DNA of 35,737 bases, from contig QPGO01000246.1 of NCBI GenBank assembly GCA_008632985.1, positions 62,001 through 97,737 of the forward strand, given 5' to 3'. The notes under the pieces are model-generated. The model saw only the letters and a program-made list of their open reading frames with translations, made no database searches and was not told where the DNA came from. The first letter of the stretch is position 1. Every line of letters starts with the position of its first letter. The position numbers and the translations under genes are program-made. Source of the DNA: Psammoneis japonica (taxonomy: Eukaryota). This document shows positions 1,690 to 35,068 of this stretch, in pieces.

Positions 1690-2800
1690 AGTGGATGGCA
1701 TTTCCAGAAATATGGTCAAACTCTGCAGGTGCCCATCACATGTTCACACAATTGACAGGGCAAACCCATGGCAAACAACACACAGGAGCAGCAACAACAC
1801 AATGCAGTGGTGGCAAGCAAAGCAAAACTTTCACAGGCATCAGTGAACCATGGACACCAAAAAAAAGTGACTGCCAATGCTGTGAATCTTCCAAGAATGG
1901 CATCATAACAGGTGGTTGACATGGAAAGGAATTTATTTTGGGTGGGGACAAATTTTGCCATGGGTGCCACTGTGCAACAAGAGCTGACAGCATTTGCGTT
2001 GCCGGAGTGCCGCTTGACTTTGTCGGCAACTTTTTCCAAAACACCAGGAGCAGCTGCTTCAAGCAGTTGCATCATCTGGTCTCACCATCAGGGTTAGTTC
2101 CATTGACATTTCAAAATGACAATTTTTTGGCATTCATGCATTGCTCCAAGAGATTCCACGCAGCCAAACACTGTTTTGAAAGAACCGAGCTCAAAAAGAC
2201 ATCCTCTCTGTGTCACAAACAAGAGGACATGTTTTGAGAGAGAAGCTTCTGTTTCACATTGAGTTCAATGTTTTCTTGCACTCTGTGTCCATGCCTGATG
2301 TGCACTTTTCTCTGACATCCAGCCCAGGTGACACCTTCAATTTTCTCACATTTGCAGAGAAGCTGCTGCTCTGCTGCTTTGCACACTTGGTTCCCAGCAC
2401 CATCTTTTCTTCATCGTCAGTTGTTGATGCACAGTGGGGTGTGGCATGGCTGCTTGTCAAATTGAGGCTTTCTCCAAATTGTCTTGCAGCAAAACAAGAG
2501 CCAAAGAAAAACCTTTGCAAGTGCCCAGAGCAGCTCCTCGATGCTTGTTGGAGGCTGCTGTGTGACATGTGTGGTGGAAGAAACACTCAAGAATGTTGGT
2601 CACTGGCACTCACAGCACTCCAGTCACTGTTGGATTTGTCCATGTCAAACTGCTTGAACATTTTAGTGGACAGCTCATCTTGCTGTGAGCAGGGTTTGAT
2701 GGGCCGGATTGTTGAGGACCAAGTTCGTCGTTCATGGCAACCCTCGGAGAGGCAATGGATGAGCACAGCAGCAGTGGCTGCAGCTCAACGGACGTCGAAA
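1690..2800. repeat. TpA- and CpG-depleted degenerate block, probably an old repeat or TE remnant
   Basis: About 5 TA in 1.1 kb by eye, few CG, rich in TG/CA; many overlapping Cys/His-rich ORFs with no recognisable domain. Boundaries approximate. Confidence 0.55.
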
Positions 2801-3064
2801 TAAGGATAGGGCGATCCAAAACTTCAAATAAAATCTATAGATACGAATATCCATGTAGCATTTTGTAACCCTGGTTCTTCTTCAATGTCGGTCAAGCGTC
2901 CATTCTACACAATTTCTGGTAGAAAATATACCTGGCCGAACTCTCCACCATTTTCAATTTGCTGCATGCAGCATGCCGCCACCTTTCGGCGAGCGGGAGT
3001 CGAAACCCGAAACCGCTGCAAAACAACCCATAGCAAACAGCAAACCACAGCCAACTCAACCAAC

Positions 3065-8834: not shown

Positions 8835-11800
8835 GCGGTGATTGGCATTTTTCATTCTAAAGATAAGAGACGAAATTGGCGGAACTTTTCAAAATGTTTG
8901 TCGCCTCAAAGCAAACTAAAGCCCAATGACAGCAATCATCCTCTCGATCATCCACGTCCACCAACAACAAGTGGCAGAGCAGCAAGAAGTGAAGAAAGAA
9001 GAGAGACCTCTCTGTGATGGTGTGCAAAGGAGGGCAACTTTCTTGCACACTTTCTCAAAGTTGCCCCTGCAACAAAATCAACCATGATGATGTGCACACC
9101 TCATGATGATGTGCACACCTCATTGGTGCAAGCTCAGATGTTCAACCAGGCAAGACAGCAGCTCATGAACTTTTTTCAATGATGTGGTGCTTCCTCACAT
9201 GCAAGTCTGGCCTGCCCCAACCCAAGCTGATCTCTCCTCTTGTTTGCGCAAGAGTGGACAATGTTTTGCCGTTTCATGCAGCAGAGCATTGCAGCACAAT
9301 GACAACAGTTGAAACACACTGCAGTGCACACAAGGCTGTCAAAGTCCTGGGCTGATCCTGCCTTTGCCCCTGTTGTTGTGCCATGCAGGGTGCACGCACA
9401 ATCCAGCTTTTTTGAGGTTGAAAAGGGCTGGAGAAGAAAAGATGCTGCAGAGCGGCTGGCATCAGCCCCTGCTGTGCAAGCTGGGCTCTCTGCTGGCACG
9501 GTTTTCATCCTTGACTGTCTTTTGTTGCTGAAGCATCTTTTGCTGTGTGCAAGAAGCTTTGTCTCCTCTTTTCAGAGAGAGCCGCCTTTTTGTGTGTGCA
9601 GTGGCCATTGGACCCGGCAACATCATTGTTCTGAGAGAGGATTCTGGTCTGCCACTTGTTTGCTTAAAATAAAACAAGTTGCACATGTGGAACAAATGTG
9701 ACAAAGCTTGGTCTTTCCTCCTCTGAGAGACAGAGGAACCAGCCGGCCACAAAGATCACAAAACACAATGCTCAATGCTCTCTCTTCTCTTGCCACTCCA
9801 AAGAGAACATGTGCTCATTTTGAAAATTGCACAGCAGTGCATTTGTGCACTCTGATGTTGTGCAGCCAGCTGGCACAAAGAGTTTCAGTCTTGTCTCACC
9901 ACTTTCTTTGTGCGCTGCTTCAGACAGTGTGTGTGTGCGGCTGCCAGGGTGGGACACAGGTGAGCTGACAATGTTTTTTTGGCCAGGGCAGTGTTGTGCA
10001 GCACTTCCAACAAACAACTTGAATTCCCTGCCCTGTTCTTCAAAAACTTTTGTGCACAAGCTGCGTGCCAAAGATCACAGCAATGTGCAGCCATGCACTC
10101 AGTTGGTCAGAGATGCCAGTGGTGTCAACGAGTGTGTCAATGAGGGCCACCCACAATGGAAACAAGCAGCATGTCTTTGTCCACAACAAGCTCTGGCAGC
10201 TTGTCCACATTGATGGCTTTCAGCTGAGCAAGCTGGGAGGCTAAGATGCACAAAGGGTGGATGATGGCACAACAGAGGACATGCCGCCCCTTTGACTTTG
10301 TCATCTCAAAATCAAGAAATGAGCTGGCAGCCTCTTGGCATCTTCACAGAGTGACACACTTCAAGGTGTGACACATCCATGGGCCTGGACTCTGGCCTTT
10401 TATTGCAGTGTGTTTTTTGTGTGGTTTTTGTTTGTCAAGGTTGCCAGCAGCTCCACTGCTTTCACCAGTGTCAAACATCATGACACCTCTGAAGTTCTCC
10501 AGGTGCACAAATTGCACTCTTTCCACCTGGCAGCTCCTCCTTTTCATCAACACAGCAAAACAGACACAGCTTGCCTGCAGGCACATGACACGTGCACATC
10601 TGGGTGGGCTTGCTGCTGCACCCTGACCCTTTGCATGTCACAATTTCTGCACCCTGGACAACCCTTGTGCTTCTGGCACAGCAAAGTTGGGAGAGCAAGC
10701 ACTTCCAGAACCCTCGCTCTGCATGCACAGCTGTTGTCATTGTCAGTGCTCAATTTTTCACTCAACAACCCTTTGCCAGGCATGGCACCACATCACTGGA
10801 AATGACAGCTGCTCCCCCATCTGTGCCAATGTCTTCTGCAAGAGCTTTGCGCAGCTCTTTCCCAGTCTTCTGTGAGAGCAATGCTTTGCAAGCAAATCCG
10901 CTGCAGTTTTTCGCCACATCCAACAACTCCTCTTGTGGACAAGCGTTGCTTCCAAAGGGAGAGATGCACCATGGCCATTGTTGCTGGATCATCAACCCCA
11001 CCAAATGTTGGGTGGCCCAGAGTTTGGCCGTCATGCTCAGCACCTTTGTCTTTTTCAAATGACAAGTGCCCCCACAATTTCATGTGCAGAATCTCCACCA
11101 CAATCTCAGCAATCTTTTGCCGACCAGTGCAAAGTTGACATGTCGTCATGGGATCTTTCATTTTAAAAATGGGGGTGTCTTTGATCACACCACCATCTGG
11201 CCTCCATTTGGGCCAGCGCACATCAAACAATGTGAGCTGCCCCGTGCAAAGCCATTGAGAGCCAATGGCCATTTTTGCAACACAATGGTCTGCCTGCACT
11301 GGCGTGGAGACAGTTGGGACAATGTCTTTTCCCTGTGGGTCATGTTCTTCCACCACACGCCTCACAAGATTTGTGTGAAAAACCACTGTGTCAATTGCTC
11401 AGCCCTCACTCAGCCCAGCATGCTTTCTGGGCTTGCTCTGCATGGTCTGCTGGACTTTGGTTTTGCATGCCACTGTTTGGGCTGCACGAGCCAACATCAT
11501 GATTTGCATCTCTTGGGTTGGTGATTGACATTTGCGCTCCAAAGATCAGAGACAAACTTGGCAAAACATTTCAAAATGTTCATTGCCTCAAAGAAACAAA
11601 CAAAAATCCTGAGTCCATCCATCCTCTTGATCATTCACGTGTGGGTGCAAATCTGACAAACATGACGACAATGTTTGCTGTGTCCATCAAATGGGGGGGG
11701 GGGCAACAAAGCAGCAAGCCAAAAGCAGCGAGCAAAATGTCTGGCGCAAAGGGCTGTTTTCTCACTTTTTCAAAATTGCCTGTGACAAAATCAACCATGT

Positions 11801-13310
11801 GCATGTCTCATCAGTGCAAGCTCAAATGCCAAGCTGGGCAAGACAGCAGCAGGAGCCACGCTGGCATTTTCAAGAGGTGCGCACTTCCTTTTTTCACACG
11901 CGGCTCTCTCCGTTGTGCAAGAACTCCTTTTGGTGCAGAAAGTTTCAGCGCTGGGGTCAATCTTTTCTTTTTCAATGTGCCCTGTGCATGACCCAACAAG
12001 CTGGCAGCTGTTTTTGAAATTTTGGAGAGGGACAGAGACCAGACGATGGTGCGAGACAGCATTTGGGCTCAGCTCCCACTGGCAATGCAAGATGGGCTTC
12101 TCTGCTCACAACCTTTTTCTATTTTGGCTGTCTTTGGCTGCTGTTGTGGCTCCTTGCTGCCTGCCACCACCACAGACCTTCAAGTCAACAAGCTCTCTTG
12201 CTTTTCATTGGAGAACAGAGCTGCTTCATGTGTGCACACTTCCATTGGGTCCTGTGCTGTTGCTCAAAAAGAAATTTCTGGTCTGCTGCTCACTTTTCAA
12301 CAATGAAGAAAGTTGTGCCATTGCATGTTCAACAAGTGCAAACCCTCTGACAGAGCCAGCAGTCTCTAAAAACAAAACACAGCTCTCTCTTTCTCTCTTC
12401 TCACCCTTTTGGAGATGGCACAGACACACACATTTTGAAGATTGCACAGTGGCACATTTGTGCCCAATGAATGCTTGGCTGCAGCCCAAGTTTGAATCTT
12501 GTCTTGCCATGTTTTTGAGTGATGCTGCAGAAAGCATGTGTGCAGGACAGGACACAGAGCCATGGCTGACACTTTTTTTTTGCAGGCAGTGTGATGGGCC
12601 ACTGCAGCTCCACCAACAACTTTAAATCCCTGCGCTGTTGTTCAGAGACTTCTGTGCACAAGCTGTGCATCAAAGATCACAGCAGGGTGCAAAGCTGCGC
12701 ACTCTGCTTCTTTGCTCTTGGCTCTGGTGGTGCTGGCAATCATGTCCTCACCAATGTTCAAAACAATGGTGTGCAAGCACGTGCACTGCTGCTCACATTT
12801 GTTGGTCACAAAGGCCTTGGTTGTGGCCCAATTTTGGCTTTTATCTTGCTTTGTCTTTTCAAACTCTGCTGGCCACAGAAGTGTGTCATTGCAGAGAACA
12901 CAACCCATGCTGTGCAAGAGCTTTGTGTTCCTCTGTCAAGAACCAAGCTGATCAGTGTCACACACAGGAAGTGATGGGTGCAGCCTCACCTGAGCACCAT
13001 TGTGGCCTCCTGTTTTCTGCAGCAACTTAGTGTGACAGCACTTTCACTCCCAAAGTGGCCTCCCACCAAGCACCATGTCATGCAGTCTGCACCCATGACT
13101 TGGCTCCCAATGATGCCAATGACAATGATGCTGACAGCAATGTCAATGTTGCTCAAGCTTGTGCCTCCTGCACCATGGATGTGCAATGCCCCCATGGCCC
13201 CAGTCTCATGGCAGACTGGTGGTGTTACCACACCCCCCCGTGTGGCATTCTTTACCATGTGGTCAAGGCCAAACCGGACATTTTCAAGAAATGAACGTCA
13301 TTCTGAAAGA
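8835..13310. mobile_element. TpA/CpG-depleted composite repeat block with two diverged direct copies of one element (copy A from ~8835, copy B from ~11517)
   Basis: Collinear homologous segments: 8838-8905 vs 11520-11592 (ggtgatt...aaagat..gagac...tttcaaaatgtt...gcctcaaag), 9061-9160 vs 11777-11850, 9815-9850 vs 12431-12465, 10026-10085 vs 12628-12685. About 10 TA in 9000-13200 by eye. Confidence 0.7.
9083..9123. repeat. Perfect 19-bp tandem duplication (CATGATGATGTGCACACCT x2)
   Basis: Read directly; single copy at the homologous position in copy B (~11795). Confidence 0.9.
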
Positions 13311-14167: not shown

Positions 14168-15017
14168 CTACTTCATCTTGTTGGACGGTACTCTTTCAGA
14201 GCTCCGTTTCTTCAGCACAAGCCAGAGCAGTATAGTGGCCACGAGCCCAACAAATGGGATGATTAGCGTTTCTGATGTAAAGTAGGTCCGTTTCATATTG
14301 GCAGCACGTTGTTGTTTCAGAATATCTTGAAGATAGGTTACGATAGTGTCACTCACAACATTATTTCCATCTTGAACAAGGTTGAGAGGGGTCTTGTTTT
14401 GTGTGTTTTTCACAGAGACTGCTTGGGGATACTTTTCTGTAAGCAACTCGACTACTGCCGCAGGCACGAACAAATCGTCACGGCGGCTCCTCAAGGCCCA
14501 ATGCAAAGGCAAGTCTCCTAAGGCATCTTGATGATTAACACCTGCGGGAAATGCATCCAGTAAATGCTTCACAACATCTTGATCCGATCGCGCGGCACAC
14601 ATGTGAAGAGGAAGGGCTCCGTATTTGTCCGTCTCTCTGACGCTTTCAGGGTAAACTTCAAGAATGCTCTCTGTGAGCGCGGATTCCATCGGCTCGCAGG
14701 TGCTGCTGCAAGCTGCGCGCAACAGACTCCACCCAATCTGGTCCTTGGCTCAAACGTCTCATGGACAAATGCTCGGCAAATGCTGAAACATGGGCAGTGA
14801 TGGATTGCAGATCAATGCAGCATGAAGTGGTGGACAGCTCCACATCCATGGAGCTTCAAAGCACGCACATGGAAAGGCCCCCGTCGTTCATTTTGTTGTT
14901 TTTCATCACAACAACTTTGTGAAGATCCGTGTGGTTCCGAATCAAGGTCTGGATCTCCTGGAGTGACTGGTGAGATTGAAGTGCATGCAACAAGGTGGTT
15001 TCGTTGTGTTCCCCCAT
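14168..15017 (-). pseudogene. Ankyrin-repeat protein with a C-terminal TM segment; 5' part degraded by in-frame TGA stops
   Basis: Intact repeats YPESVRETDKYGALPLH, DALGDLPLHWAL, KNTQNKTPL. The same frame upstream reads PLHAALICNPSLPMFQHLPSICP*DV*AKDQIGWSLLRAA, with TGA at 14759-14761 and 14750-14752. Start position tentative. Confidence 0.7.
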
Positions 15018-15478
15018 GGTTTTCAGACTGAAATTGTGCTGTGGCCTGTCGATTGAGACATGACATGATGTGGTTGTTCTGTGGTTGCCCTCTTTTTGTT
15101 CATTGATCAACAAGCATTGCTCTGCAACTGCTGTTTTCTGTTGCCAGTGTACTCTACTCTAGCAGCATGATAGTGGGCCCCTCTAGCTAGCAGAGGGCTT
15201 CTTCAAGGTGATGTCGGATTTGCATTGTTGTCGGCCAATGTCGGCGGCAAAAAACGTGAGATCTTCTGCATGCGCTAACGCGCGCATGAAGTGCGCGAAA
15301 CAATGCCATGAATTAACGGTCAAATAACGCTCATGGATCCAAGATCCAGTACAAAATCAACGTGGCTTTACACGCACGAATCATTTCTCATCGGAACCCG
15401 CTTGCAAGCTCGTTTCACAACGCCGCCGGTTCAGTCACACGTTGTCGCTGCATAACCAATCAAGTAAACAAAACAACC

Positions 15479-18127: not shown

Positions 18128-18421
18128 GTTGTCGACTTTTCGTTTCACACAACTGCGAAAGCTGTTACCTCTTTTCTGCAACAAAAACGAAAGTGTCGCC
18201 TTGAAAAAAAAAGTGGCGTCGGTCGGTGCGTGGTCGCGGTTTGATGACGTGTCACTTCTCCCGCCATTTTCGCGCGATTTTGCGCAATTTTTGAAATTCG
18301 GAATCTCCCTCCGAGAGAGCTGTCAGGTGAATCCCGTCACGTCGGTCAAGACGGTGGCAACAGAACATTCTCACTTGTCATCCTATCACTGTCACCATCA
18401 TACGATTGCTTCTTGCCAACC

Positions 18422-19828: not shown

Positions 19829-19989
19829 GAGGCGCCGTGAATGGAAGCAGTGGTTTAGAATCTGCATAGAAGTACATTGAATTCAATTGTTGCGAGATGA
19901 TGGGTGGCACATTTTTCTTGTAGAGTTAAAGGAATGATGTAGCTGCACGAGAATATTTCTATCAGCATCCATGACAATCCCCGTGTAAA

Positions 19990-21390
19990 CCATTTTCATT
20001 GACGCACTGTGATTTTCCCTCCGCGTCGTGATCACTGCATCGATTCCGGACAAATGACACAAAAGCGCACCTTCCAAATCAAAGGACACCCCTTTTGTGT
20101 TGCCATCCCATGCTTGTGTGGGTGGAAGCAGGAGTTCACTGAGAGGCTTGGCCACCTCTTTAAGCACCCACCTCTTCCGCCACCATGTGGACAACCAAAG
20201 CCCAATGTTGTTGTGCACTCAAGCACCACAACTTGGACAAGAAGAGTTGCACAAACCAAAAAGAACTGCTGTTGCAGTCATGACAATGGGCACTGTGAAA
20301 GGTTTTCTCCTCTGCACCTTCAACAGCTCCCCCTTCTCCACTGCTTGCTGCACCAAATTCTCAAAAAGGTTGCAAATGGAGGTGGTGCATGCCACTGGCC
20401 TTTCCGGCCTTTTTTTTGGAAGGCCACTCCTCTCAGGTGAGTCAGGAGCTGCAGAGTTTTACACAGACTCAAGCCCACAAAAGGTTGTTTTAAATCTTGC
20501 AAAATGTGCAACAGGCAGCACACAAAAACATCTGCAGCATTCACAATCATGTGAAGAGCACAGCTGTTCTTTTGTTGATTTTGTGACACCCTTTTTTGTT
20601 CAAAAGTTTCTGTGCAGAGTTTGGAGGCCCATGGTGGTGGGAGGAGAGAGTGGTCTGCCCCCCCCCCCTGCTCACACACACAGGGGTTTTTCACTTGTTG
20701 GCTGCTTGCACATTGGGTGGCTGCACTTGGAAGCAGTGTTGCAAATCATTGTGAGCAACACCACCAGAACAAGCCACTGCAAAAGCTGGCTCTTTCTTTT
20801 TGTCAGTGCCATGGGTGCTGCTGTGCATCATGTTGCCAACAAGCAGAGAGCAAGTTTGCTTGCTGTCCACACCATTGTCATCTTTCTCTGGCAGGAGCTT
20901 CGCCCCATGGTCATCGGAGGGGGCTCCAGCCACAAAAGAGAGAGAAAAGAGAGCCTGCTGGAGGTGCAACAGAGGGCAATCATCATGCAATTGAAAACAT
21001 GAAGAAATGGTTTAAAAATTGCATGACTTTGGGAAACAATGCAGCCAGCTTTGCGACGCTGTTTGGGGTCAGGGGGCAGGGTGGAGGGCAAGAGCAAGGG
21101 TGGCAGGCTTCTGCCTGCACAGCGCCACCGGCTGCTTCTTGTTGATCATCAGAACATCATCCTGCCTCCTTGGACGATCAAAATTTAGTTAGGACAAGAG
21201 ATTGAGTTGTTCAACTCAATGTTGTGGCTTGTGTTTGAACTGACATGGCATTTGGGTTGAGCTGAGCTGAGGCAGCCAGGTGCAAAAAGGGGGCTCATGT
21301 GTCACTCCAAAAAATTCGGACATTCGTGTTTCAACGGATCTGTCATTCAAAGATGTCCGTGCAGACATCGGACGACGGAGTTTTGCCAGG
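19990..21390. repeat. TpA/CpG-depleted degenerate block, probable non-autonomous TE remnant
   Basis: About 6 TA in 1.4 kb by eye, all in TTA context; poly-C tract at ~20658; no credible protein. Boundaries approximate. Confidence 0.55.
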
Positions 21391-21597
21391 GGCTTATGTG
21401 TGAGTGAATGATTCAGGAGTCTCTGTTACATTAATTAGTCCTCAAGTATGAGGATGTTGATTGCACTGAAGTCATAGTTTCATTTTTTCGATAGGCTCAC
21501 CAAAGTAGTCGTAGAACAGGCCCGATTAGAGTAGTCGACGAAGCACTCCAATCAAGGAACAGGGGGCATTCTCAATTCTACTCTAGGAGTGGTTGCG

Positions 21598-23628: not shown

Positions 23629-25742
23629 GCTCACCTGTGGTTTCCTCTCATCGACTGCTTTGATGTGAAACGATATGAATAGTTTTGTCGGCAAGATTGA
23701 TTGCTCGCATGACTGCCGGACTGGAGAGATATGATCAACAGAGAGCCGATTCATCGGAACTGGACAATAAGCTAGCCAGTACCCCACAATTCTTTTTTCC
23801 CATAGCATCTCCGTCTCCACTTCTTGTACCACGATTCGTGTCGCCCAAAGAAGCCTACCGGTAGGGGTTTGATGTCGTTCATCTTCTTCTGGATCATAGT
23901 CGGCATCCCTGTTGCTGTCTTCATTTTCTAATGGACTTGACCGCGAGTGTATCAAATGACTGATAGCAATGGTCGATTTCACGAAGACTCCCCAAAACGA
24001 GGCGAAAATGTTATTCCATTTAGCTTCAAGCTGATCTTTGGTCAAGCGTCTTCTGTAGCGTATCCGCGCAATTCAAGGTGGTTGAAATGCTGGATCATCC
24101 ATGCTCAAGATTCAGGAGTACCCGAGATCTCCACACATCTTCGAGGCATTTAAAGCCGGGCACCTCCGCTGACACAAAGAAGGGACGCATAACTTTGAAG
24201 TCAGAACAAGTTCCTCTTGGAAAGTCGAAATTCCGTACAACAGTCCTGAGAACGACGGATTTTGGTGGGTTCACGTATTTCATCTATGTCCTGCGCTTGA
24301 AGATTTAGTCTCTGATATGGACTTTGGATTGCATGGATCGATCTGAACACCAAGATGCTGCAAAACAAAGGCCAACGGCCAACTTTGCACTATTACATAC
24401 AGTAAGCCTTTCTCGTTTTCTCGTATTTTTCCCAAAAATCGCCCCGCTGTATCCCCACCCCTACTGCATTAGAGTCGCAGAACCACAGTCTCTGATTTGA
24501 TGGCGGGGAGGGGGGGGGGGGGCCAATTTTTCAAAATTGATCTTTGAAATTTTCGGGGCGTCGCGGTTCTGTGATCTGTGATGCGAACCCGTCCCATGAC
24601 AGCAGTGTGACCCCTAAACATCTAATCAAAAAATGTTTGCTGTTGTGTGTCAGAGCATCAACAACGACAGACACGAAATTGGAAAATGAACAACGGGCCC
24701 GATCAGACTGAAAAGGGGGCGATTGAAAATGATGGTGGACTGCATGACAACGACACGCCATTGTCTTTTTATGAAGAAAAGCAGAGAATGGGAAATCGTC
24801 GACAACCTCAAAAAAGACTTCAAGTTGCAAATCAAGATGCGAACGAACCTGATGATTCAGAACCTCCAAGTGTGATTGCCACTCCGGTGACTCAAACACT
24901 GACGACGGATGAAGAGACGGACCTTGACACACTTTGGGAGCCCGTGCCGCATGCGCCGACAATGACACCGGATGAGCGCTTTCAGCAAATTGCAGACATG
25001 ATTGCATGTTTGCAGCATCAACAGCTGCTGTCATTTGCTCCTCATCAGAACCAAGATTCTAGCGCGACTGAATCTAACTTGTCGAATGTGGAACAAACCA
25101 TGGGATGGAAAACTCAGACTGTGAGGGCCACAGCGAGCGATCCTCCTGCTTCACTTGCGACGGCTTCCACCCAGAAACAGAACCTGCAACGCAGTCAAAA
25201 GCCAGATCCTCCAGCAATGCAATTTCTGATTGATGACATGCTGCCAAAACTCGATCCCAACTGTGAAGTGCAGAGTGACGATTTGAATGATTGGGTTCAG
25301 GAAAGATTGATTCCGGCTGTGTCTGTCCATCGCGAGGCAGGGACCGGCACGAGAGCTGATTCATCGGGATTGGACGATGGAAAGCCACCCGCCAGACACA
25401 TTGACAATCTCTTTGCAATGGATGCCAATTCGGAATTTCCAGACTTTGATGAAAGGTGGAAAAGAGCTGAGCAAAGGGTGCAATCGCTTTGTGGCAAACG
25501 TGACAGTGCGGTCAACCAGCCAACCACCACATCCAACTCATCCCCCAATCTCCCCGATGCATCAAACGCCCCATCCCAGGCAGCATCGAACAATGAGGTG
25601 ACAGAGAATGCAAGTCAATTTCATGGTGCCACTTGGATGGCTCCCGCAAAATGCACTCCAGCAGATCCCAAGGACATTGACGGCGAGCCCAAAGACGAGA
25701 CGAAAGTCCTGGTCTCTGCTCCAGATCCGGTCACTGCCCATT

Positions 25743-26099
25743 TGTGACAATTTGGCATGACTGTGGACATCTCAGGACGTCCAATCTTCTTAGAATTTCC
25801 ATGTGGCTGAGTTGGACATCGGAAAGGACAATTCAAGTGATGAACTCATGCCGTGACTCTCAGTGCATGTTCTACATGAGTGACATTCAAAGAATGTCCA
25901 TTTTCTGACGTGGCATCATCCAAGATCTTTCGGATCACAAAACGAGAGATTCACTTTTAGATTAGTTCTAGCTCACAATTTCAACTGAGCAGGAGTCAGC
26001 AAGACAACTCATTGCCATTTCACTGGCTTTTAGTGCCTTGCACTGATTGTCAGCAGCACACTCTACAGATGGGACCTGTGTCCCAGGTAGAATCTCACA
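25743..26099 (+). repeat. 5' LTR (357 bp)
   Basis: TGTGACAA...GAATCTCACA; aligns without gaps to 32328-32684. Confidence 0.95.
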
Positions 26100-26119
26100 C
26101 GCTTCCTCTGCGACCTGCT
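26098..26119 (+). other. Putative primer-binding site complementary to the 5' end / D-arm of initiator tRNA-Met
   Basis: Reverse complement AGCAGGTCGCAGAGGAAGCGTG resembles the eukaryotic tRNAiMet 5' sequence AGCAGAGTGGCGCAGCGGAAGCGTG; there is no TGG-type PBS. Confidence 0.55.
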
Positions 26120-26171
26120 TCGCAACTTCGATTTCAAGCCAGCCATTGATCGAGACCCAAGCCATCCAACA

Positions 26172-27652
26172 ATGGCAACCACCCGCACCTCGTCTGCCAT
26201 GACTGGAGCTCCTGCTTCAGCTCCCGCTGCTGCTCCTGCTGCTGCTCCAGCTGCTGCTCCTGCTGCCGCTCTGGCAGGTGCACCTGTGCCAGCACCACCA
26301 GCTCCACCGGTTCCACCAGTCCCTCCAGGAGGCGGTGGTGGAGGAGGTGCACCTCCAGTGCCTCCAGTGCCTCCGGTTCCTCCTGCAGCACCTGCTGCAG
26401 GACCCACATTCGCATTGACCCCTGGTCAGCACCGTCCAAATGACTGGACAGACTGCGGCACCTCACAAGGTCTCAAGCTCTGGAATGCTGCCACGGCTCC
26501 ACTGCCTCACGAGTTCAATGGAGACTCTGAAGGTCTCAACAAATTCTGTGAAGTTCTCAACGAACGAGCAGCAGAGTCAGGATGGAAGTCAGGAACGGGA
26601 AACATCATGTCGATCCCTGACAGCAATGGAGTCGCTCGAGACTTGATCACCGAGCATGGCAGACTTGCCGCACAAAACGTGCGCGACCATGCTGCTGCCT
26701 GCATGGCTGCTCAGTCAAGGCAAGCCCAGAACCAAGTCCAAATGGCTGAGGCGATCTCTCAGACCCTAACTGTGGAAGCCAGAGACAAGATCATCACCGA
26801 AAGTGAGCAATGCAAGATCAACGGAGTACAAGTCGGTGCACTGTTCTTCAAACTGCTCACTCAGAAGGCCATTGTGGACACTTGCTCAACCGCGAACTGC
26901 TTCCACAAGAACTTGTCCAGCCTTGACTCATGCATGTCGACCTGCAACTCGAACATCGAGGAGTTCAACAAGCACGTCAAACTCAATCATGACGGACTCA
27001 GAGCTGGGGGAGAAGGCTGCGATGACCTTGTGGTCAATCTGTTCAAAGGATGCGCAGCAGCCAGCGATCAAGCATTCGTCAAGCACATGGCTGACATGGA
27101 ACAGAAGCACGACGACGGTGAGGACTGCACTCTGGAACGAGTCATGCAGCTAGCACTCAACAAGTGCACGAACCTTGATCAAGCAGACAAGTGGGGAGCA
27201 CTCTCTCCTGAGCAGGAAAGGATTGTTGCACTCACCATGGAAGTCGAGACCATCAAGGATCACAACCTCAAGCTCTCCAAGGCTCTCAAGAGCAGTCCCA
27301 GTGAGTCCAAGGGAGGTGGTGGCAAGCAGAGCTCCAAGAACAAGAGCGAGAACCCGAAGCGCACCAAGAAACAGGACGAAGCCTGGAAGAAGACTCCGCC
27401 AAAAAGGACAGTGATCCCACGAAGACTGTCAACGGGCACAAGCATCATCACAAGAGTCAGAAGGGACGAGACTGTTGTTGGTGCAAGTGCCACTCTGCTT
27501 GGGTGGCTCACTTGCCTGATGATCCGGGAGACAAAGGTTGTCGACTTCGCAAAGCTCAAGAATCTGAAAGCGGAACGAAAGACTCCAACAAGAAAGTTTC
27601 CTGCACCAACGCTCTGGCCTCAATCATCGAGGATCTCGAGTCCGAGGAATGA
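26172..27652 (+). pseudogene. gag: gag (Ala/Pro-rich N-terminus, CHHC-type knuckle); 1-bp frameshift at ~27405
   Basis: TFALTPG, LITEHGRL, NLFKGC...SDQAF. After the shift: WCKCHSAWVAHLPDDPGDKGC...LESEE*, TGA at 27650-27652. No Tyr. Confidence 0.85.
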
Positions 27653-30600
27653 CTGGTCCGGAAGGTGCTCCGGACATGGGCATTCTGCATGAAGGCGGCA
27701 CTTGTCGCGTTCGCAATTGCCCCAGTCACCACAAGCTTCGTAGATGCCATGGCTCCACTGTTGGTGCTCACAGTGTTTACAACGCTCAACCTGCCAGAGA
27801 AGAAGTGGAAACGCGCATCTGGGTCAGCAATGACATTGGGTGAGTGGATCATTTCGCAAATCCCAGCTGACAGCATGACTGGCACACGCAAACCACGACG
27901 AAACAAGAGTCGACACTCACCGCGATACATCACTCACAAGAAGAAGGGCCACCCTGCTCGAATCGCGTGCAAGACAGCTCAATGCGAGATCACCTTTCGT
28001 GAAACAGTCTACGCTGACACCTCGACCACCACGACGCCATTCAAAAGAGAGCCAAGAACGGAGCCAGTGTCCTGCGACTCCGACTCCTTCATTGTCGGTG
28101 TCGACAACCACACAACCTGCACAATGTTGAATGACAGATCACACTTTGTCGGTGACCTGCGTCCCACAAACAAGCGGATCAAGGGAGCAGGCGGATGGTT
28201 GGACGCAGAAGGAGAGGGCACACTCAAGTGGTGCATCGAAGACGACGACGGACAGGTGCATGCGATCACCACACACGACGCACTGCATGTTCCCAACTCA
28301 CCTGTTTGCCTCCTCTGCCCTCAGCAATGGAGCCAGCAAGCTCAGGATCATTGTCCTGAACCACACGGAACGACTTCCTGTAACCAAGACAACGGCCTCC
28401 CACTCATGTGGGATCAAAGGAAGCACACGAGGCTGGTCCCTTGGACCAACAACTCCAACGTTGCACGCTTCCGTTCCGCACCCGGTGCCACTGATTGTCG
28501 GGCATTCACCGCCGCAGTCGATGCTGACAACAATGTCGAGACTGTCGAGCACGTAGCCTGTCAAACGCACGTGACACCTCCAGACGACGACAGTGACCCT
28601 GAGTCCGCGGACGCTGCGAATCACAAAGACGCCTTCACAAGTCCTGATGAGACAGGTCCTGACGAGACCCAAGGCACGTGCAACAACATTGATGAGGACG
28701 TGCCACTGTTGTTCAAACCGACAGATGCTGCACACAGATCCGACTCACCTGATGAGAACCTCAAGGATCTAGCAACCCCAGACGTCCACTCTCAACTCAA
28801 AGATCCCATCAACGTCATCCCTGACGATGATGCCCTGGCGGCCACCAACGACCAAGGTGAATTGTTGCGTTGGCACTGTCACCTTGGACGCCAATCATTC
28901 AAAATGATTGAGCTCCTAGCTGCATTGGGTGTCCTTCCGCAATGCCTCCTGAAGGTCAAGGAACCCAAATGTGCCGGCTGCCTCTGTGGCGCCATGACCA
29001 AACGCCCTTGGCGCACCAAATCCAGACGCAAGTCGAACACACATGTCGCCACAAAGCCAGGGGAGGTCACATCGGCAGATCAGCTCGAAAGCTCAACCCC
29101 AGGCTTTGTCCCTCAACTCAAAGGGAGACCCACAAAACAGTGATGCAGAGCAGCAACAGCATTTGTCAATCACTGCTCCAAACTTGGGTGCGTGTTCCTG
29201 CAATGATCACTTGCCTCCGAGGAAACCCTGAAATCCAAACATGCTTTCGAAGCCTTTGCGAGACGACATCATGTCCAAATCAAACACTGCCATGCCGACA
29301 ACGGACAATTTGCTGACAACGCTTTCATGCAAGACGTTGAGAAACAAGGACAAACCATGTCGCACTGCGGCGTCAACGCCCACTTCCAAAACGGCATCGC
29401 TGAAAAGCGAATCCGCGACCCACAAGAACAGACTCGCAAACAGCTGCTACACACGAAAGCAAGATGGCCAACGGCCATTGAGATCAATCTCTGGCCAAGT
29501 GCGCTGCGCAATTCAAACGAGCTCAAGAACAAATTGCCCAACCACGAAGATGGCAGCTCTCCAATCGAACGATTTGCCTCCGTCAAGGTCGCTCCAAATC
29601 TCAAACAACACCACACTTTCGGATGCCCCGTCTGTGCGCTTGACAACCGACTGCAGAGTGGACAGAGAGCACCCAAGTGGCAATCAAGAGCAAGGTTAGG
29701 AATCAACTTGGGACCATCTCCGAGACACGCTGGATCAGTCAATTTAGTGCTCAACCTCGAGACTGGACTTGCCTCTCCGCAATTTCATGTTCAATTCGAT
29801 GACTTCTTCGAGACGGCACGGCCTTCAGCAGGAAATGCACCTACATTCTCGCAATGGCAAACTGCACCAGGACTCAAGAAGCAAAGAGCATTGAGGTTCA
29901 ACATCTTCAAGCCACAAAGGGAAGCAAGGGAGCCTCGCTCCGCTGTGCCAGCGCAGAACACTTCGACACCGGAACCCAATGTTCCGCAACAACTCAAAGA
30001 CGAGCATTTCCCTGTCACTGAAGACGAGACACCCGAATCAGCAGAAGACACGACACCTGAAGACTCTCAAGAGACAGTGCCAGAACAACCAAGTGTCAGC
30101 AGGGCTGGCAGAGTGCGCAAACCAATGCAACGAATGGTGGAAAGTCAACAACAATGAGCCGCTGGCATCGCATCGCATCTGTCGACCTGTTGCGAGTGCT
30201 GCGATGCAATGCACGAGGACGACTGCAAGATGCAAGATGACATGGACTCACCTTTCGCCTTCTCAGCCAGAACCGACCCAGATGCCATGTGTTTTGATCA
30301 AGCTGTGAATGAACCAGACCGAGATGAGTTCGTCAAGGCTTGCATCAAGGAAGTCAATGATCACATTGAACAAAAACACTGGAAACTGATTCCTGTCAAA
30401 GAAGTTCCAGAGGGAGTCGACATGCTCCCAGCGGTGTGGTCTGTGAAGAGAAAAAGAGACATCAAGACAAGAAAAGTGCACAAGCACAAGTCAAGGCTCA
30501 ATCTGCACGGCAGAAAACAAGAGCATGCAGTCAATTGTTTTCAGACTTGTGCAGCAGTTGTCAATTGGAACACTGTGCGGTTCCCACTCATGCCGTCCAT

Positions 30601-32284
30601 TCTGAACAGATGGCACACTCGCCAAGTCGACTTCGTTCTTGCCCATCCTCATGCCGACATCGAATTTGACATGCACATGGAGCCACCAAAAGGCATCGAA
30701 ACCAAACGCGGCAATGGCAGAACCCATGTGTTGAAATCACTCAAGAACCTGCATGGACAGAAACAAGCAGGGAGAGCATGGGGTGAGCACTTGCGAGAAG
30801 GATTGTTGAAAATTGGATTCAAACAATCAAAAGTCGACGAATGCCTTCATCATCGAGGAAATGTTGTTTTCGCACACCACGTCGACAATGGCACATTTGC
30901 ATCACCAGACAAGGATGCCATTGACAAGGCGATCGAAGATGTCCGCAATGCGAACTTTGACATCGATGATCAAGGAAATGTTGACGACTGCCTTGGTGTC
31001 AACATCGAGACACTGCCTGATGGCAGAATGAAACTGACGCAACCACAAATGATCAAGCAAATGCTCGAAATGGTGAACTTGCCTCATCGTGTGCCGGACA
31101 AGCAGACTCCAGCAGCATCTTCAAAGATGCTACATCGACATGAGAACGAAGAATCTTTTGGACGCATTCCAGACGCAGGTGGGAATCCGTGTGACATTGG
31201 GCCCGTGGACTTCTACGTGCGAGCTCCACAGCAAAATTGTGCGGCAATTAAAATGTCAATGATCGCCAACAGAAAATGAGGCAATTTTGTGAACGCACAA
31301 ACTCGCACATGATTGAAGCACATCATTTTTTACTTGGCCAGTTACATTCTTCAGACATTGAAGAATGTAACTGGCGCATTGTTGTTTCTACAAATTTGTC
31401 ATGTAAAACGTCTGGGGCTTCGCAAAACAGCGAGTCTGGACAATTTTTTTTAAATGTCACACGTAGAAATCTACGTGCGAAACATACGACGGATGACAAA
31501 AATTGTTGTTGTCACACGTCAGCACTGCGAGCTCCCACCCAGGGCTGGAACGCGTCTTTGATGGATCCTTTGACTGTCGCAGCATCATTGGCAAATTGAA
31601 TTTCCTGGAGAAGAGCACTCGACCCGATGTCGCGTGCGCTGTGCATCAAGTCGCGCGATTTTCAAGTGACCCCAAACGATCACACAGTGAGGCAGTGCCA
31701 TGGCTCTGCAAGTGCTTGCGAGCAACCAGACACGAAGGTGTCATTCTGGACCCAATGGAAGACAAGTCATTGGAAGTTCACGCCGATGCCGACTTCGCAG
31801 GCAATTGGAACAAAATGACTGCCCCTTGTAACGTCAGCACTTCAAAGTCCAGGGCAGGGCATGTTGTCAACTGCGCAGACTGCACTGTCGTTTGGACATC
31901 TGAGCTTCAGACACAAATCGCGCTAAGTGCAACAGAAGCCGAACACATCGCTTTGTCCGAGAGCCTCCGAAGCGCCATTCCTGTCATCAATTTGATCAAG
32001 GAATTTCAAGAGCATGGACACAAGGCACCATCCAAGACTCCTTTGGTTCATTGCAAGGCATTCGAGGACAATTCAGGTGCATTGGAAATTGCAAGACTGC
32101 CCAAGATGAGACCAAGAACCAAGCATTTCAATCTGGCGCTGCATCATTTCAAGGAACATGTTGGGAAGGGAGAGTCATTTCCATTCCACCCATTGACACC
32201 ACTGAACAAATTGCAGACATGGAGACCAAGCCAGTGCCTCAAAACATGTTTGTTCGCCTTCGAAAGAAGCTGCTCAAGTGGTGA
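27653..32284 (+). pseudogene. pol: pol (protease, integrase, RT, RNase H); stops, frameshifts and a MITE insertion
   Basis: PR IVGVDN; INT WH..LG..SF...CAGC, SADQLES, HADNG, QNGIAEKRIR, FGCPV, SPQFHV; RT QVDFVLAHP, KNLHGQKQAG, HHVDNG; RH ADADFAG, IALSATEAE, FEDNSGAL, RTKHF, IADM. TGA at 29141 and 29204. Confidence 0.92.
31161..31556. mobile_element. 396-bp MITE / non-autonomous DNA transposon nested in the RT region
   Basis: Imperfect 24-bp TIRs (GACGCATTCCAGACGCAGGTGGGA vs reverse complement GACGCGTTCCAGCCCTGGGTGGGA); 4-bp TSD TTTG (31157-31160, 31557-31560). Excision restores EESFDGSFD. Confidence 0.88.
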
Positions 32285-32319
32285 TTTTAGATCAAGTCAC
32301 AGCTTCACCCGACACTTTC

Positions 32320-32327
32320 AAAGGGAG
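32320..32327 (+). other. Polypurine tract
   Basis: AAAGGGAG immediately before the TG of the 3' LTR. Confidence 0.8.
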
Positions 32328-32684
32328 TGTGACAATTTAGTGTGACTGTGGACATCTCAGGACGTCCAATCTTCTTAGAATTTCCATGCGGCTGAGTTGG
32401 ACATCGGAAAGGACAATTCAAGTGATGAACTTGCGCCGTGACTCTTGGTGCATGTTCTACATGAGTGACATTCAAAGAATGTCCATTTTCTGACGTGGCA
32501 TTGTCCAAGATCTTTCGGATCACAAAATGAGAGATTCACTTTTAGATTGGTTTTGGCTCATAATTTCAACTGAGCACGAGTCAGCAAGACAACTCATTGC
32601 TGTTTTGCTGGCTTTTAGTGCCTTGCACTGATTGTCAGCAGCACATTCTACAGACAGGACCTGCATCCCAGGTAGAATCCCACA
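32328..32684 (+). repeat. 3' LTR (357 bp)
   Basis: TGTGACAA...GAATCCCACA followed by the TSD CCATT. Confidence 0.95.
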
Positions 32685-32940
32685 CCATTTGGTTCTCGAT
32701 GATGACCACAGCTCTCAGCTGCAGAGGCTGAATGAAGCAGTTGCATCCTTGCAAGAGAAACAGAATGTAATCGATGCCACTGTGAAGTGTGCAGAACCTG
32801 CAGGCAAAGAGAATGAAGACTGTGATGATGAGCTGAGTTTTCTGGAAGCATGTGGACCTGCACTGATCTTGTCTTTCCTTGCTTTGGGTGTGGGAATCAC
32901 CGTTGGTTTGAGGATGGGACATTCACGAGGTGGCAAATGA

Positions 32941-34960
32941 TGCAATGGACACCATGCCAAAGAACCGTCGACAGATCTGCTTGTTCGCAACATTGAAAGG
33001 AAAGTCTCGAGCTGAGACTCGACATTGTTGTGCCAGCGAAAACACTGGTTGTGTTCGCCGACCGCTTGTGCTGGTGGCATCATGATGAATTCGTTGTCGT
33101 CCCAGAAAAACGTCTTGTTGAACTGGTGGGAGACCTTGATGGTGCATTGACAGACATCATTGGATGGGGTCGACGAACACTCGATCATGTGCTTTCTGCA
33201 TGTCTGCGCTTTCACAGTCAACATTGCTCCTTTCGTCTTGATTCGACGGAAAAGCCTTCCATGTCCTGTTCTTGCCAATCCCTGCAGGCCTTGCGAGTGA
33301 TTGATCTTCTTGATGCTTGCCTGGAGCTCCAGCTGGAGGAGGGACTCTGGACGCAATTCATCGCCAAGCTCAGAAAAAATGTGGTGCGCTGATGGCGACT
33401 GAGTGAAGCGCAATGTGTGCTCCTCGAAGTGCCAATCGTGATGGTGGAAAAACCACTCAATTGCGTGAGCAAGGTTGCCCCCCAGTGGTCCAGCATCAGC
33501 GCTCCGGTCTTCAACAAGGCATTGACAACCAAGCACTTTGCAATCTGCGACTTCAATGCAGTTCTGCAAGAATCTTCTGTGGCACACTGTTTTTGTTTCA
33601 ACACACTCCACCATGGGGATGAGAGAGAGGGAGGGCAGTGAAAACATCACTGGCATGAGAGAGAATGCACATCACATGACTGGCACACAAAAAAACATTG
33701 AGGCCTCATTGTTTGAGAGTGATGCCCCAAATGACAAATGCATGGCTTGGAACTTCCTTCCTCTTGTTGTTGCCATGCAAGTCCTGACTTCCACAATGTT
33801 GGTCTCTTGCTGATTGGCAAAGTCCAGCTCAAAAACAATTTTTCTCTCTGCACACAGGCACAAAAACAAAAGCAATTCTTCAAATTGATTGTGGAGGTTT
33901 TCATGTCTGACCAGGTGCTGGAAGAGCTGAGAACTGCCACTTTCTCTTGCTTGTTCTGTTCTCTTGCATGGGTCATTTGATTCTGCCATTAGAGAGTGGC
34001 AGTTTTTTCAGATGTGTGTGTGCTGGCTGGCACCAGAGCCACTCTTGTTTTTGAGATGGTGTCCTGTGTGATTGACCTCCAATTGTTCCCCAGAGGGCAC
34101 AGGCAACTGACAGTCTGCACCAAGCAATCTCAAGAGAGCAAGTCACAGGTGCACTCACGGATCTGTTTGGATCAACAGGTGGAGCAGCAGCGACCTTCGC
34201 AGCTCAAAACATGTGGAGCTGCCTGCAGCACAGCTGTCCAAAGGCAGTTGATAAATTGTTTTGTTTCCACTCACAAACATTACAATGGGTTGTGATCAAA
34301 CAACATGGCTCGTGAGACATTTCTGGAGAAAGATGCTGATGAGCCAAGCACTGTCCACACTGACAAAGATCATGCAAGCTTGAACCACCAAATGGTGCCA
34401 GAACTGTGCCGCTCTTAAACTCTGAAATGAGAGGAAGGTGTGCAGTGGCTCTTTGTAAAAATTTCAAGTTTGGACTGTGCTGCATGCCACCACGTTGTTG
34501 CAAGAAAAAGAAAATCTCCGAGTTTGCCTGTGTTTTTGTGCACAAGCGTTGTGTGTGCCCCACACAGCTTTGGGGCAGCAAATGGGCTTTGCTTTGGCGG
34601 GATTCCATCACCCAAAACATTCATCTCAGTCATCCTTGAAACAAAAGTCTGGCACATTCTTGAAGGAGTGGCCATGTGACACTGCACACACTGGTGGGGG
34701 GGGGCGCTGCTTTGACCTTCTTGCTTCTTCTCTCTGCCGAGCCACCACCACCAGCCCATCTCTGCATCATCATCTCATGATGAACAAAAGCTGTTTCTCT
34801 TTTGAGACAAGAATTTGTTGTGCATCCTGAGTGACAAACAAGCAGCAGACAACAGGCAACAAGCCCGAATGATTGTTGTCTTTGGGATGGCAAGTGTTTG
34901 GCAACAAATTAAATGATGAGATGCATGGCATGTGGGCTTGTCATGGCCGCATGGCCGCCG
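32941..34960. repeat. TpA-depleted block continuing the sequence the copia inserted into (degenerate ORF ~32940-33620, then non-coding)
   Basis: About 6 TA in 2 kb by eye; an interrupted protein-like frame (LVVFADRLCWWHHDEFVVVPEKRLVELV...) with no recognised family. Confidence 0.5.
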
Positions 34961-35068
34961 TACGTTCGGATCGTCAATCTTTCGTTCGATGTTGTCTGGG
35001 GGGATGTGCTTTTCAGGCATCAGAAATCAGGCAGAAGAATTTTGTATGCCGAAAAGGATCTTGACACC

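Follow-up and report, generated by a model that had tools for sequence, protein, structure and literature searches.

The window analysed here is a 35,737-nucleotide stretch of contig QPGO01000246.1 from Psammoneis japonica (assembly GCA_008632985.1, positions 62,001 to 97,737 of the forward strand). It carries intact homogentisate dioxygenase (HGD), DAGAT, M64 peptidase and TCP-1 genes and, beside them, blocks of DNA from which the dinucleotide TpA has almost disappeared, one of which holds a retrotransposon with two diverged long terminal repeats (LTRs). The differences between these LTRs, and the loss of tyrosine codons from the interior, suggest with a probability of about 0.8 that this copia element was hypermutated from TpA to TpG and CpA after its two LTRs had been made as identical copies.

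The element

The element is assigned to the Ty1/copia LTR retrotransposons because matches to gag_pre-integrs, SH3_retrovirus and RVT_2 follow one another in copia order between LTRs with TG...CA ends, which are flanked by a 5-bp target-site duplication (TSD) (Table 1). Homologues of the 6.2-kb interior carry PF13976/PF22936 and PF07727, and the named relatives of the integrase come from Attheya and Fragilaria. Judged by its reading frames this is a dead copy of its family: pol, which would be intact in an autonomous copy, is spread over four frames, with a TGA at 29141-29143 where homologues have Arg (a CpG-type change), a change of frame near 31300-31497 and an insertion of 400 bp. Rfam and tRNA scans of the window gave no match.

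Table 1 Features of the window. O/E, observed/expected ratio of a dinucleotide; TA and CG values without further label are O/E
Feature	Position	Strand	Remarks
TA-erased block	1712..2806		5 TA, O/E 0.07; CG 0.25
TA-erased block	8859..13252		13 TA, O/E 0.05; CG O/E 0.19
Small TA-erased block	14562..15159		4 TA, O/E 0.11; CG 0.61
TA-erased island between HGD and M64 peptidase genes	19961..21394		7 TA, O/E 0.08; CG 0.27
TA-erased block holding element and flanks	24616..35044		TA within the 0.05-0.11 range
TA-erased left flank	24616..25742		4 TA, O/E 0.06; CG O/E 0.75
Left TSD, CCATT	25738..25742		identical to 32685-32689
5′ LTR, 357 bp	25743..26099	+	TGTGA start, CACA end; 10 TA-class changes relative to 3′ LTR (8 swaps, 2 single)
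Gag-like open frame	26091..27692	+	no Pfam match; 0.0% Tyr
Primer-binding-site-like stretch	26100..26112	+	directly after 5′ LTR; same 13 bases after 5′ LTR of L028
Protease/integrase N-terminal frame	27653..29143	+	gag_pre-integrs match, below Pfam cut-off
Integrase C-terminal frame	29207..30157	+	SH3_retrovirus match, below Pfam cut-off
Reverse transcriptase	30158..31279	+	RVT_2, E 2.6e-26; every conserved Tyr codon now TGY or CAY
MITE-like insertion, 400 bp	31157..31556		imperfect terminal inverted repeats
RNase H-side frame of pol	31497..32345	+	homologues align as far as 32279
3′ LTR, 357 bp	32328..32684	+	alignment with 5′ LTR
Right TSD, CCATT	32685..32689		matches left TSD
TA-erased right flank	32685..35044		8 TA, O/E 0.05; CG O/E 0.40

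Differences between the two LTRs

In a gap-free alignment of 25743-26099 with 32328-32684, 27 of the 357 bases differ (92.4% identity), by 26 transitions and one transversion. The first-pass annotation of this DNA had grouped the differences into 19 sites, and its tally was reproduced exactly: eight sites are double changes with CA in one LTR and TG in the other, four have TA against TG or CA, three have CG against TG and four are of other kinds. The 5′ LTR has CA and the 3′ LTR TG at 25756, 25847, 25861, 25917, 26016 and 26021, and the orientation is reversed at 26070 and 26079. With the four single changes at TA (25753/4, 25963/4, 25969/70 and 25976), the LTRs differ at 12 TA-class sites. 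Common to both are six TpAs and five CpGs, and the earlier count of about five CpGs kept in both copies, with three changed in one, was likewise obtained here. The CG O/E of the LTRs is 0.35-0.46, and the CCATT TSD, described before as intact, is present on both sides.

When 27 random transitions were placed on the LTR, a mean of 0.40 CA/TG swaps resulted, with a maximum of 5, and eight were reached in none of 100,000 trials. Divergence within pyrimidine-purine (YR) steps is 24/174 (13.8%) and outside them 3/183 (1.6%). The observation itself is confirmed as real and lies far beyond chance. A degenerate LTR pattern, scanned against metagenome, genome and viral contig collections, found no further LTR copy.

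The three CG/TG sites (25804, 25849 and 25943) are all C/T on the plus strand. The remaining differences are at 25968, 25992, 26061 and 26095; those at 25968, 26061 and 26095 are outside TpA yet pair A/T with G/C (tCt/tTt, aCt/aTt and cTc/cCc), and from the pair alone they can be read in either direction. They may reflect a minor activity of the same process outside TpA, in which case the background divergence of these LTRs would be even lower.

Polarity of the changes

The direction of change was read from the interior, to which 125 copia proteins from public collections were aligned; a column was used if it held 8 or more sequences with an agreement of 60% or higher. Tyr has gone from all 23 columns in which it is conserved: 14 now read Cys (TGY), 7 His (CAY), 1 Ser and 1 Leu. 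A stricter first pass with 92 homologues had given 0 of 13. Control columns were retained for Trp (16/16), Phe (27/29) and Arg (28/35), and of 19 CGN Arg codons 16 survive, the other three having been lost through a CpG-type change (to CAC, TGA and CAA). When conserved residues were examined for single reversions, 21 changes TA>TG and 14 TA>CA were found, together with 9 CG>CA and 1-2 CG>TG; a further 26 transversions and 15 multi-step cases reflect divergence of the family. As the Tyr columns now read TGY or CAY and the reversions are mostly TA>TG or TA>CA, the ancestral state was TA, and both strands were subject to its loss. Decay of CpG is also real but about five times less complete than the loss of TA. 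Without its insert the interior has 19 TAs in 5.8 kb (O/E 0.06), with CG at 0.72, TG at 1.66 and CA at 1.41. Among 118 homologous proteins from other records, five are Tyr-erased.

The CpG-type changes of the interior (26100-32327) are skewed by strand, at 9 CG>CA to 1-2 CG>TG, and are accompanied by six further G>A changes. The plus strand of the interior is strongly A-rich, with an AT skew of up to 0.27. The skew in CpG changes may be a matter of family divergence rather than of mutation in this copy.

Other copies of the family were sought among the contigs of one sequencing run (X1), of which 2,779 aligned to the window; the differences described here come from 40 listed places out of 1,941. 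The family is multi-copy in this run, with a depth of about 280-830 over the element and 79-118 in its flanks. T replaces C at 30644 in at least three contigs and at 31860 in at least one, restoring TAT at Tyr columns. At 31944-5, at least two contigs have TG for CA; since all 24 of 24 homologues have Tyr in that column, this is a CA/TG swap between copies with a demonstrable TA ancestor. CA stands for TG at 31865-6, in a column conserved as Ile (ancestral T|A), and many further TG/CA double differences between copies are among the places listed. Within the LTR only 32453, 32454 and 32461 are among them; at 32453-4 both LTRs of the present element have TG, and at least two other contigs have CA.

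The insertion in pol resembles a miniature inverted-repeat transposable element (MITE), with terminal inverted repeats of about 24 bp, and is flanked by TTT. Its copy number is very high (summed contig depths of 69,391 and 126,771 in two bins, against about 80-120 in the unique flanks), and two contigs joining 31156 to 31557 represent other copies of the element in which it is absent. Although it lies inside a TA-erased element, it retains TA (O/E 0.37) and CG (1.12). Either the attack on this copy was over before the insertion, or the targeting is specific to sequence.

A mosaic of erased and normal DNA

TA-erased DNA makes up 18,198 of the 35,737 bp of the window, about half, at a TA O/E of 0.05-0.14; the rest has TA at 0.58 and CG at 1.03. 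The total includes two shorter TA-poor stretches inside genes (TA 0.13-0.14), described below. The edges of the blocks are sharp, the median spacing of TA in genic DNA being 15 bp, and kilobases of genic sequence have TA at 0.46-0.71 and CG at about 1.0-1.3. CG O/E varies between blocks, being 0.19 at the lowest, among the older blocks, and 0.72-0.75 for the element with its left flank; the right flank, judged from its loss of CpG, is older than the element. The left flank has the lowest depth among the bins in run X1 and is not high copy. Six frames in TA-erased DNA (2180-2803, 10793-11398, 11786-12625, 20058-21002, 24626-25747 and 32715-33671) gave no match in Pfam; that at 20058-21002 is a 314-residue open frame in the island between the HGD and M64 genes.

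The sequences at 8837-10089 and 11520-12691 are a diverged tandem duplication in the TA- and CG-erased block at 8859-13252, with 70-85% identity in four aligned pieces at a spacing of about 2.6-2.7 kb. Between the two copies there are 10 CA/TG swaps, 34 transversions and a further 27 transitions.

The HGD gene, which adjoins erased DNA, is intron-less, and those of its relatives that carry a species name are all from diatoms (among them Skeletonema, Amphora, Fragilaria, Nitzschia and Cyclotella), with identities of 52-60%; the best match of all is at 69%. This gene and the kin of the element make a diatom, or a near relative of diatoms, the most likely host. The TCP-1 gene has three short introns. 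The TA-poor stretches inside genes, at 7659-8066 (TCP-1 exon region) and 18071-18400 (the starts of the DAGAT and HGD genes), have CG at 1.07-1.33 and are probably due to coding or chance composition and not to hypermutation.

Independent elements in metagenomes

A scan of metagenome contigs with the reverse transcriptase alignment returned 79 copia loci. Seven of these (L026, L028, L037, L020, L023, L034 and L075) are Tyr-erased, one example having kept 2 of 20 Tyr columns, while 8 turned to Cys and 6 to His, and the Trp columns are intact in all 79. In six of the seven the TA O/E is 0.09-0.15 while CG remains at 0.66-0.90, so that the loss of TA can be told apart from CpG decay.

L028 is a full element, with an interior TA O/E of 0.14 overall (0.04-0.34 per 500-bp bin). 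Between its LTRs (2137-2374 and 8917-9154) there are 18 differences. At 17 of these the 5′ LTR carries A/T and the 3′ LTR G/C, and 13 lie at TA. TA is retained (O/E about 1.0) in the 5′ LTR and on either side of the element, and the interior and 3′ LTR are erased. There may be a real domain border close to where the 5′ LTR ends, or two copies may have been joined in a chimeric assembly. The differences outside TpA, at 2147, 2298 and 2308, are two aTt to aCt and one cA to cG, in the same direction as the other 14 A/T-to-G/C changes. The 13 bases at 2375-2387 of L028 are those found at 26100-26112 of the window, though the reverse transcriptases of the two copia families are only 44% identical; this is as expected if the 13 bases are a common tRNA primer-binding site.

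Identical end repeats of 109-127 bp in twelve further loci (L014, L015, L017, L022, L041, L046, L051, L054, L055, L058, L063 and L064) were not used as LTR pairs, as they look like assembler overlaps of collapsed LTRs.

Sequence context and strand

The TAs that survive show which contexts are spared. In the erased blocks of the window outside the LTRs (n=56) there are 7 RTAY, 22 YTAR and 27 mixed contexts (R, purine; Y, pyrimidine), as against 239, 109 and 364 among the 712 genic TAs (chi-square P=4e-6). The interior of L028 has 0 RTAY, 36 YTAR and 15 mixed, and its flanks 100, 76 and 182 (P=2e-13). YTAR is thus spared and RTAY erased. The LTR pair can be set beside this rule. Its six shared TAs are CTAA (three) and CTAC (three), and the contexts of the swap sites are ATAC, ATAA and ATAG (two each), GTAA and CTAA, so that seven of the eight fall into context classes for which the survivors show depletion or no bias. 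Of the four TA sites hit in one LTR only, three are in CTAA or CTAG. In a rank test on context enrichment, shared TAs and swap sites differed (Mann-Whitney P=0.006).

The choice of strand was analysed by runs. The Tyr sites fall into 5 runs in 21 (P=0.007). By hand count, the eight LTR swaps form 2 runs (P of about 0.06) and the 13 TA sites of the L028 LTR form 7, near expectation. Tracts strictly coherent in strand, such as those of fungal repeat-induced point mutation (RIP) or kataegis, were considered and are unsupported over all 35 polarised sites taken together. At best there is a regional bias in the choice of strand.

Interpretation

The explanation preferred here is that the two LTRs were synthesised as identical copies and that each then mutated separately, in a process that would convert A:T to G:C on either strand at TpA and would be local, near-saturating and confined to selected DNA, with neighbouring genes spared. 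A 'hot' TA would be lost from both LTRs, and where opposite strands were hit CA would be left in one copy and TG in the other, giving the eight swaps; in 'cold' contexts TA would be kept in both LTRs (six sites) or in one (four sites). The target would be a TA in which the A is followed by a pyrimidine on the attacked strand, so that RTAY would go first and YTAR last. Methyl-CpG decay would have run in parallel and much more slowly, accounting for three LTR sites and about 16% of the CGN Arg codons. What the data show is the polarity, the action on both strands, the restriction to domains, the near-saturation, the context rule and the independence from CpG loss.

The numbers agree with such a process. 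From the CGN Arg codons (3/19) and the LTRs (3/16 copy-sites) the loss of CpG per copy is about 0.16-0.19, at which only about 0.1-0.15 visible swaps would be expected against the eight seen. A loss of TA above 0.9 at susceptible sites, with about half of the double losses visible as swaps, implies some 18-26 TAs per LTR at insertion; this is an O/E of 0.65-0.93 against an expected 28, near that of the unmutated LTR region of L028 (about 1.0).

Most of what had been claimed from the sequence alone is borne out. A TA ancestor of the swaps is supported by the Tyr columns, by TAT or the opposite swap in other copies, by the flanking contexts and by the LTR pair of L028, and the TA O/E of 0.05-0.11 in the blocks, with no conserved Tyr kept, agrees with the description of the process as near-saturating. 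CpG decay had been judged too weak to give eight double hits, and the expectation just given says the same. That neither RNA editing nor reverse transcriptase error is responsible follows from the way in which LTRs are made. The headline claim, that the pair shows mutation in chromosomal DNA after integration and on both strands, holds for change after LTR synthesis and for both strands; the chromosomal, post-integration setting is not shown by the LTR pair of this copy. We infer that setting from the TA-erased blocks that are not part of the element, from L028 and from the mutation-accumulation lines of Bigelowiella natans described below. The targeting probably depends on silencing marks or on small RNAs and not on the number of copies; the erased flanks have the lowest depth in run X1.

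Several points weigh against this explanation. Run X1 contains only 0.58 of the sampled words of the window, and the TA ancestry of the eight LTR swap sites is statistical and not read directly from family copies. The references used for polarity are only 40-61% identical to the element, the Tyr class alone being clean, and CpG-type changes are present (10-11 in the interior and three in the LTRs). Six TAs are kept in both LTRs despite the near-total loss in the interior, of which the context rule explains only a part: with a strict 'cold' class defined without the LTRs the comparison is 3/6 with 1/8 (Fisher P=0.24, not significant), and CTAC is enriched just 1.23-fold among survivors. Patchiness by strand is not seen over all 35 polarised sites (16 runs, P=0.32), and His outcomes after a purine before the codon (5/10, against 2/11) lie in the predicted direction without significance (P=0.14). 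L026 and L028 gave identical counts and are possibly one element filed twice.

The chemistry may be that of a TadA/ADAT-like enzyme which is brought to silenced or foreign DNA and deaminates its adenines to inosine, a proposal made by analogy for which the odds seem to us about even. A different chemistry at the same sites, in which an enzyme modifies the T of TpA (one of the TET/JBP type, for example, would hydroxylate it to 5-hydroxymethyluracil) and faulty copying or repair then puts C in its place, is unlikely but is to be taken seriously. T>C and A>G at TpA are one event seen from two strands, which sequence alone cannot separate, and in dinoflagellate DNA 5-hydroxymethyluracil is enriched at TpA. 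The context rule, however, reads most simply as a pyrimidine on the 3′ side of the attacked A (TAY), which resembles the U-A-C loop of the natural tRNA substrate of TadA. The authors of the B. natans study also favour an ADAT2-like deaminase, itself a proposal (bioRxiv 10.64898/2026.01.13.699255).

It is rather improbable that the copy was born hypermutated, through the action of a deaminase on cytoplasmic cDNA. The LTR argument requires only change after LTR synthesis, for which linear double-stranded cDNA qualifies, and restriction of the APOBEC3 type does act at the cDNA stage (bioRxiv 10.64898/2026.01.13.699255). On the other side, both strands were hit (14 Cys to 7 His), blocks in which no retro-element domains were detected, such as the 1.4-kb intergenic island and the low-depth flanks, are erased too, and in L028 the 5′ LTR was spared while the interior and 3′ LTR were hit. 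In B. natans, moreover, the mutations arose de novo in integrated DNA (bioRxiv 10.64898/2026.01.13.699255).

Methyl-CpG decay, by which the swap sites would have been CG at insertion and 5-methylcytosine would have been deaminated on opposite strands in the two LTRs, was the initial reading and was dropped on the dinucleotide profile and the Tyr/Arg test; it is now very improbable as the source of the swaps. A dinoflagellate host, considered at the same stage, was dropped on the same evidence. The low CG of the LTRs, their three CG/TG sites, the CG O/E of 0.19-0.40 in older blocks and the cytosine methylation of diatom LTR elements, reportedly at CpG (PMC2806351), are all in its favour. It does not account for an interior that keeps CG at 0.72 and 16 of 19 CGN Arg codons against none of 23 Tyr, nor for eight swaps at the observed rate of CpG loss, nor for the swap between copies at the Tyr codon at 31944-5, nor for TA-erased metagenome elements with a CG O/E of 0.84-0.90.

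There is still less to be said for LTRs that come from different, separately mutated copies through recombination, gene conversion or chimeric assembly, which would make the pair uninformative on mutation since insertion. The family is multi-copy and repeats are prone to mis-assembly, but CCATT is intact on both sides, the bases of the LTRs outside YR steps are identical except for three, and the polarity and the process would be unaffected even so. An artefact of sequencing or assembly, in which modified bases were miscalled according to strand and a true TA (or CG) was read as CA or TG, is scarcely credible: miscalls of a palindromic dinucleotide would indeed yield swaps, and the poor coverage of the window by run X1 would fit, but at the density of the CA/TG sites a large share of errors would be incompatible with matches for 58% of the 31-base words, the signature and its context rule recur in separately assembled metagenome records and in five Tyr-erased proteins, and the edges of the blocks are sharp beside normal genes.

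Relation to known systems

Hypermutation from TpA was reported in 2026 from mutation-accumulation lines of B. natans (Mettrop et al., bioRxiv 10.64898/2026.01.13.699255). According to the main text, the mutation rate in integrated DNA of giant viruses and virophages is about 1000-fold that elsewhere in the genome, the changes in this DNA being only from TpA, to TpG or CpA; coding sequences low in TpA are enriched in reverse transcriptase and DDE domains, and an ADAT2-like candidate is proposed, ADAT2 of amphioxus and Trypanosoma being cited there as acting on DNA. That main text does not mention LTRs, retrotransposons, the wider sequence context, CpG or diatoms. The present case resembles it in several ways: the change is A:T>G:C only, at TpA, giving TpG or CpA by strand, and selfish or foreign DNA is hit beside normal genes and has in the long term low TpA with high CpA and TpG. 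There are differences as well. B. natans is a chlorarachniophyte, and so a rhizarian, whereas the host here is a diatom, a stramenopile. The targets here are an LTR retrotransposon and blocks of no assigned origin instead of viral DNA. Erasure is near total (TA O/E 0.05-0.1, against 0.45 in the B. natans region derived from nucleocytoplasmic large DNA viruses), and the evidence is historical, from an LTR pair and Tyr codons, where that from B. natans consists of de novo mutations. Full-text literature searches found nothing comparable for diatoms or stramenopiles, and a search by term of diatom transposon papers, including PMC2806351, gave no mention.

Fungal RIP is similar in its dense transitions on selfish or duplicated DNA, in acting on both strands with a dinucleotide preference and in destroying coding capacity. 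RIP converts C:G to T:A, mostly CpA to TpA, and so creates TpA and lowers GC (RIPCAL, PMC2621366). Here the opposite is found: the affected blocks have lost TpA, to an O/E of 0.05-0.1, and gained in GC, and codons for Cys or His stand where Tyr was encoded, while RIP turns Gln and Trp codons into stops. Nor is a dependence on duplication evident here, the TA-erased flanks having the lowest depth and the B. natans region being described as single copy. The methyl-CpG decay of silenced transposons also produces TG and CA and acts here too (CG O/E 0.19-0.75, three LTR sites and three Arg codons), but the TA process is much faster and separable from it.

Clustered transitions of the deaminase type on selfish elements are further known from ADAR hyper-editing and from APOBEC3 editing of cDNA. 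APOBEC yields C>U (G>A) and not A>G. ADARs are metazoan enzymes that prefer a U before the edited A (bioRxiv 10.64898/2026.01.13.699255). RNA A-to-I hyper-editing of the ADAR type was rejected, as it would affect one strand and be alike in both LTRs; the Tyr sites have 14 TG and 7 CA and the LTRs differ at 12 TA-class sites. The A>I chemistry proposed here would be like that of TadA/ADAT2 and of engineered adenine base editors. We know of no natural enzyme that erases TA from kilobase-sized domains of chromosomal DNA.

Significance

The first description of this kind of phenomenon dates from 2026, and the present case adds to it a new host lineage and a new class of target. A hypermutation known from one preprint on one chlorarachniophyte is thereby extended to a diatom-like host and to LTR retrotransposons, and the target rule, with TAY attacked and YTAR spared, must be met by any candidate enzyme. 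Erasure of Tyr to Cys or His, CA/TG swaps between LTRs and survivors confined to YTAR are diagnostics that can be read from the sequence of any genome or metagenome; in this work they picked out 7 of the 79 copia loci from metagenomes and 5 of the 118 homologous proteins.

For the annotation of transposons there are two consequences. Dating by LTR divergence, which the first-pass annotation had already called unreliable here, suffers from a severe bias in such elements (raw divergence 7.6%, but 1.6% outside YR steps). A 2025 survey of diatom transposons assumed a constant rate when dating LTR elements by sequence identity, and its available text does not mention hypermutation. Hypermutated elements also lose Pfam-detectable domains along with their Tyr, and will be under-called when the transposons of these genomes are annotated.

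More broadly, and with a confidence somewhat short of even, it is suggested that diatoms, and perhaps many protists of the stramenopile, alveolate and rhizarian (SAR) group, carry an 'inverse RIP': a DNA adenine deaminase system that would recognise silenced or invading DNA and processively erase TAY on both strands over kilobase domains with sharp borders, that would be shared with B. natans or convergent with it, and that would be visible in environmental assemblies. A natural adenine deaminase acting on chromosomal DNA, if real, would be of interest to genome-editing research. If such a system exists, Tyr codons and TATA-like promoter elements would be wiped out of its targets and their GC raised, and it would form a new branch of eukaryotic genome defence, the natural counterpart of engineered adenine base editors.

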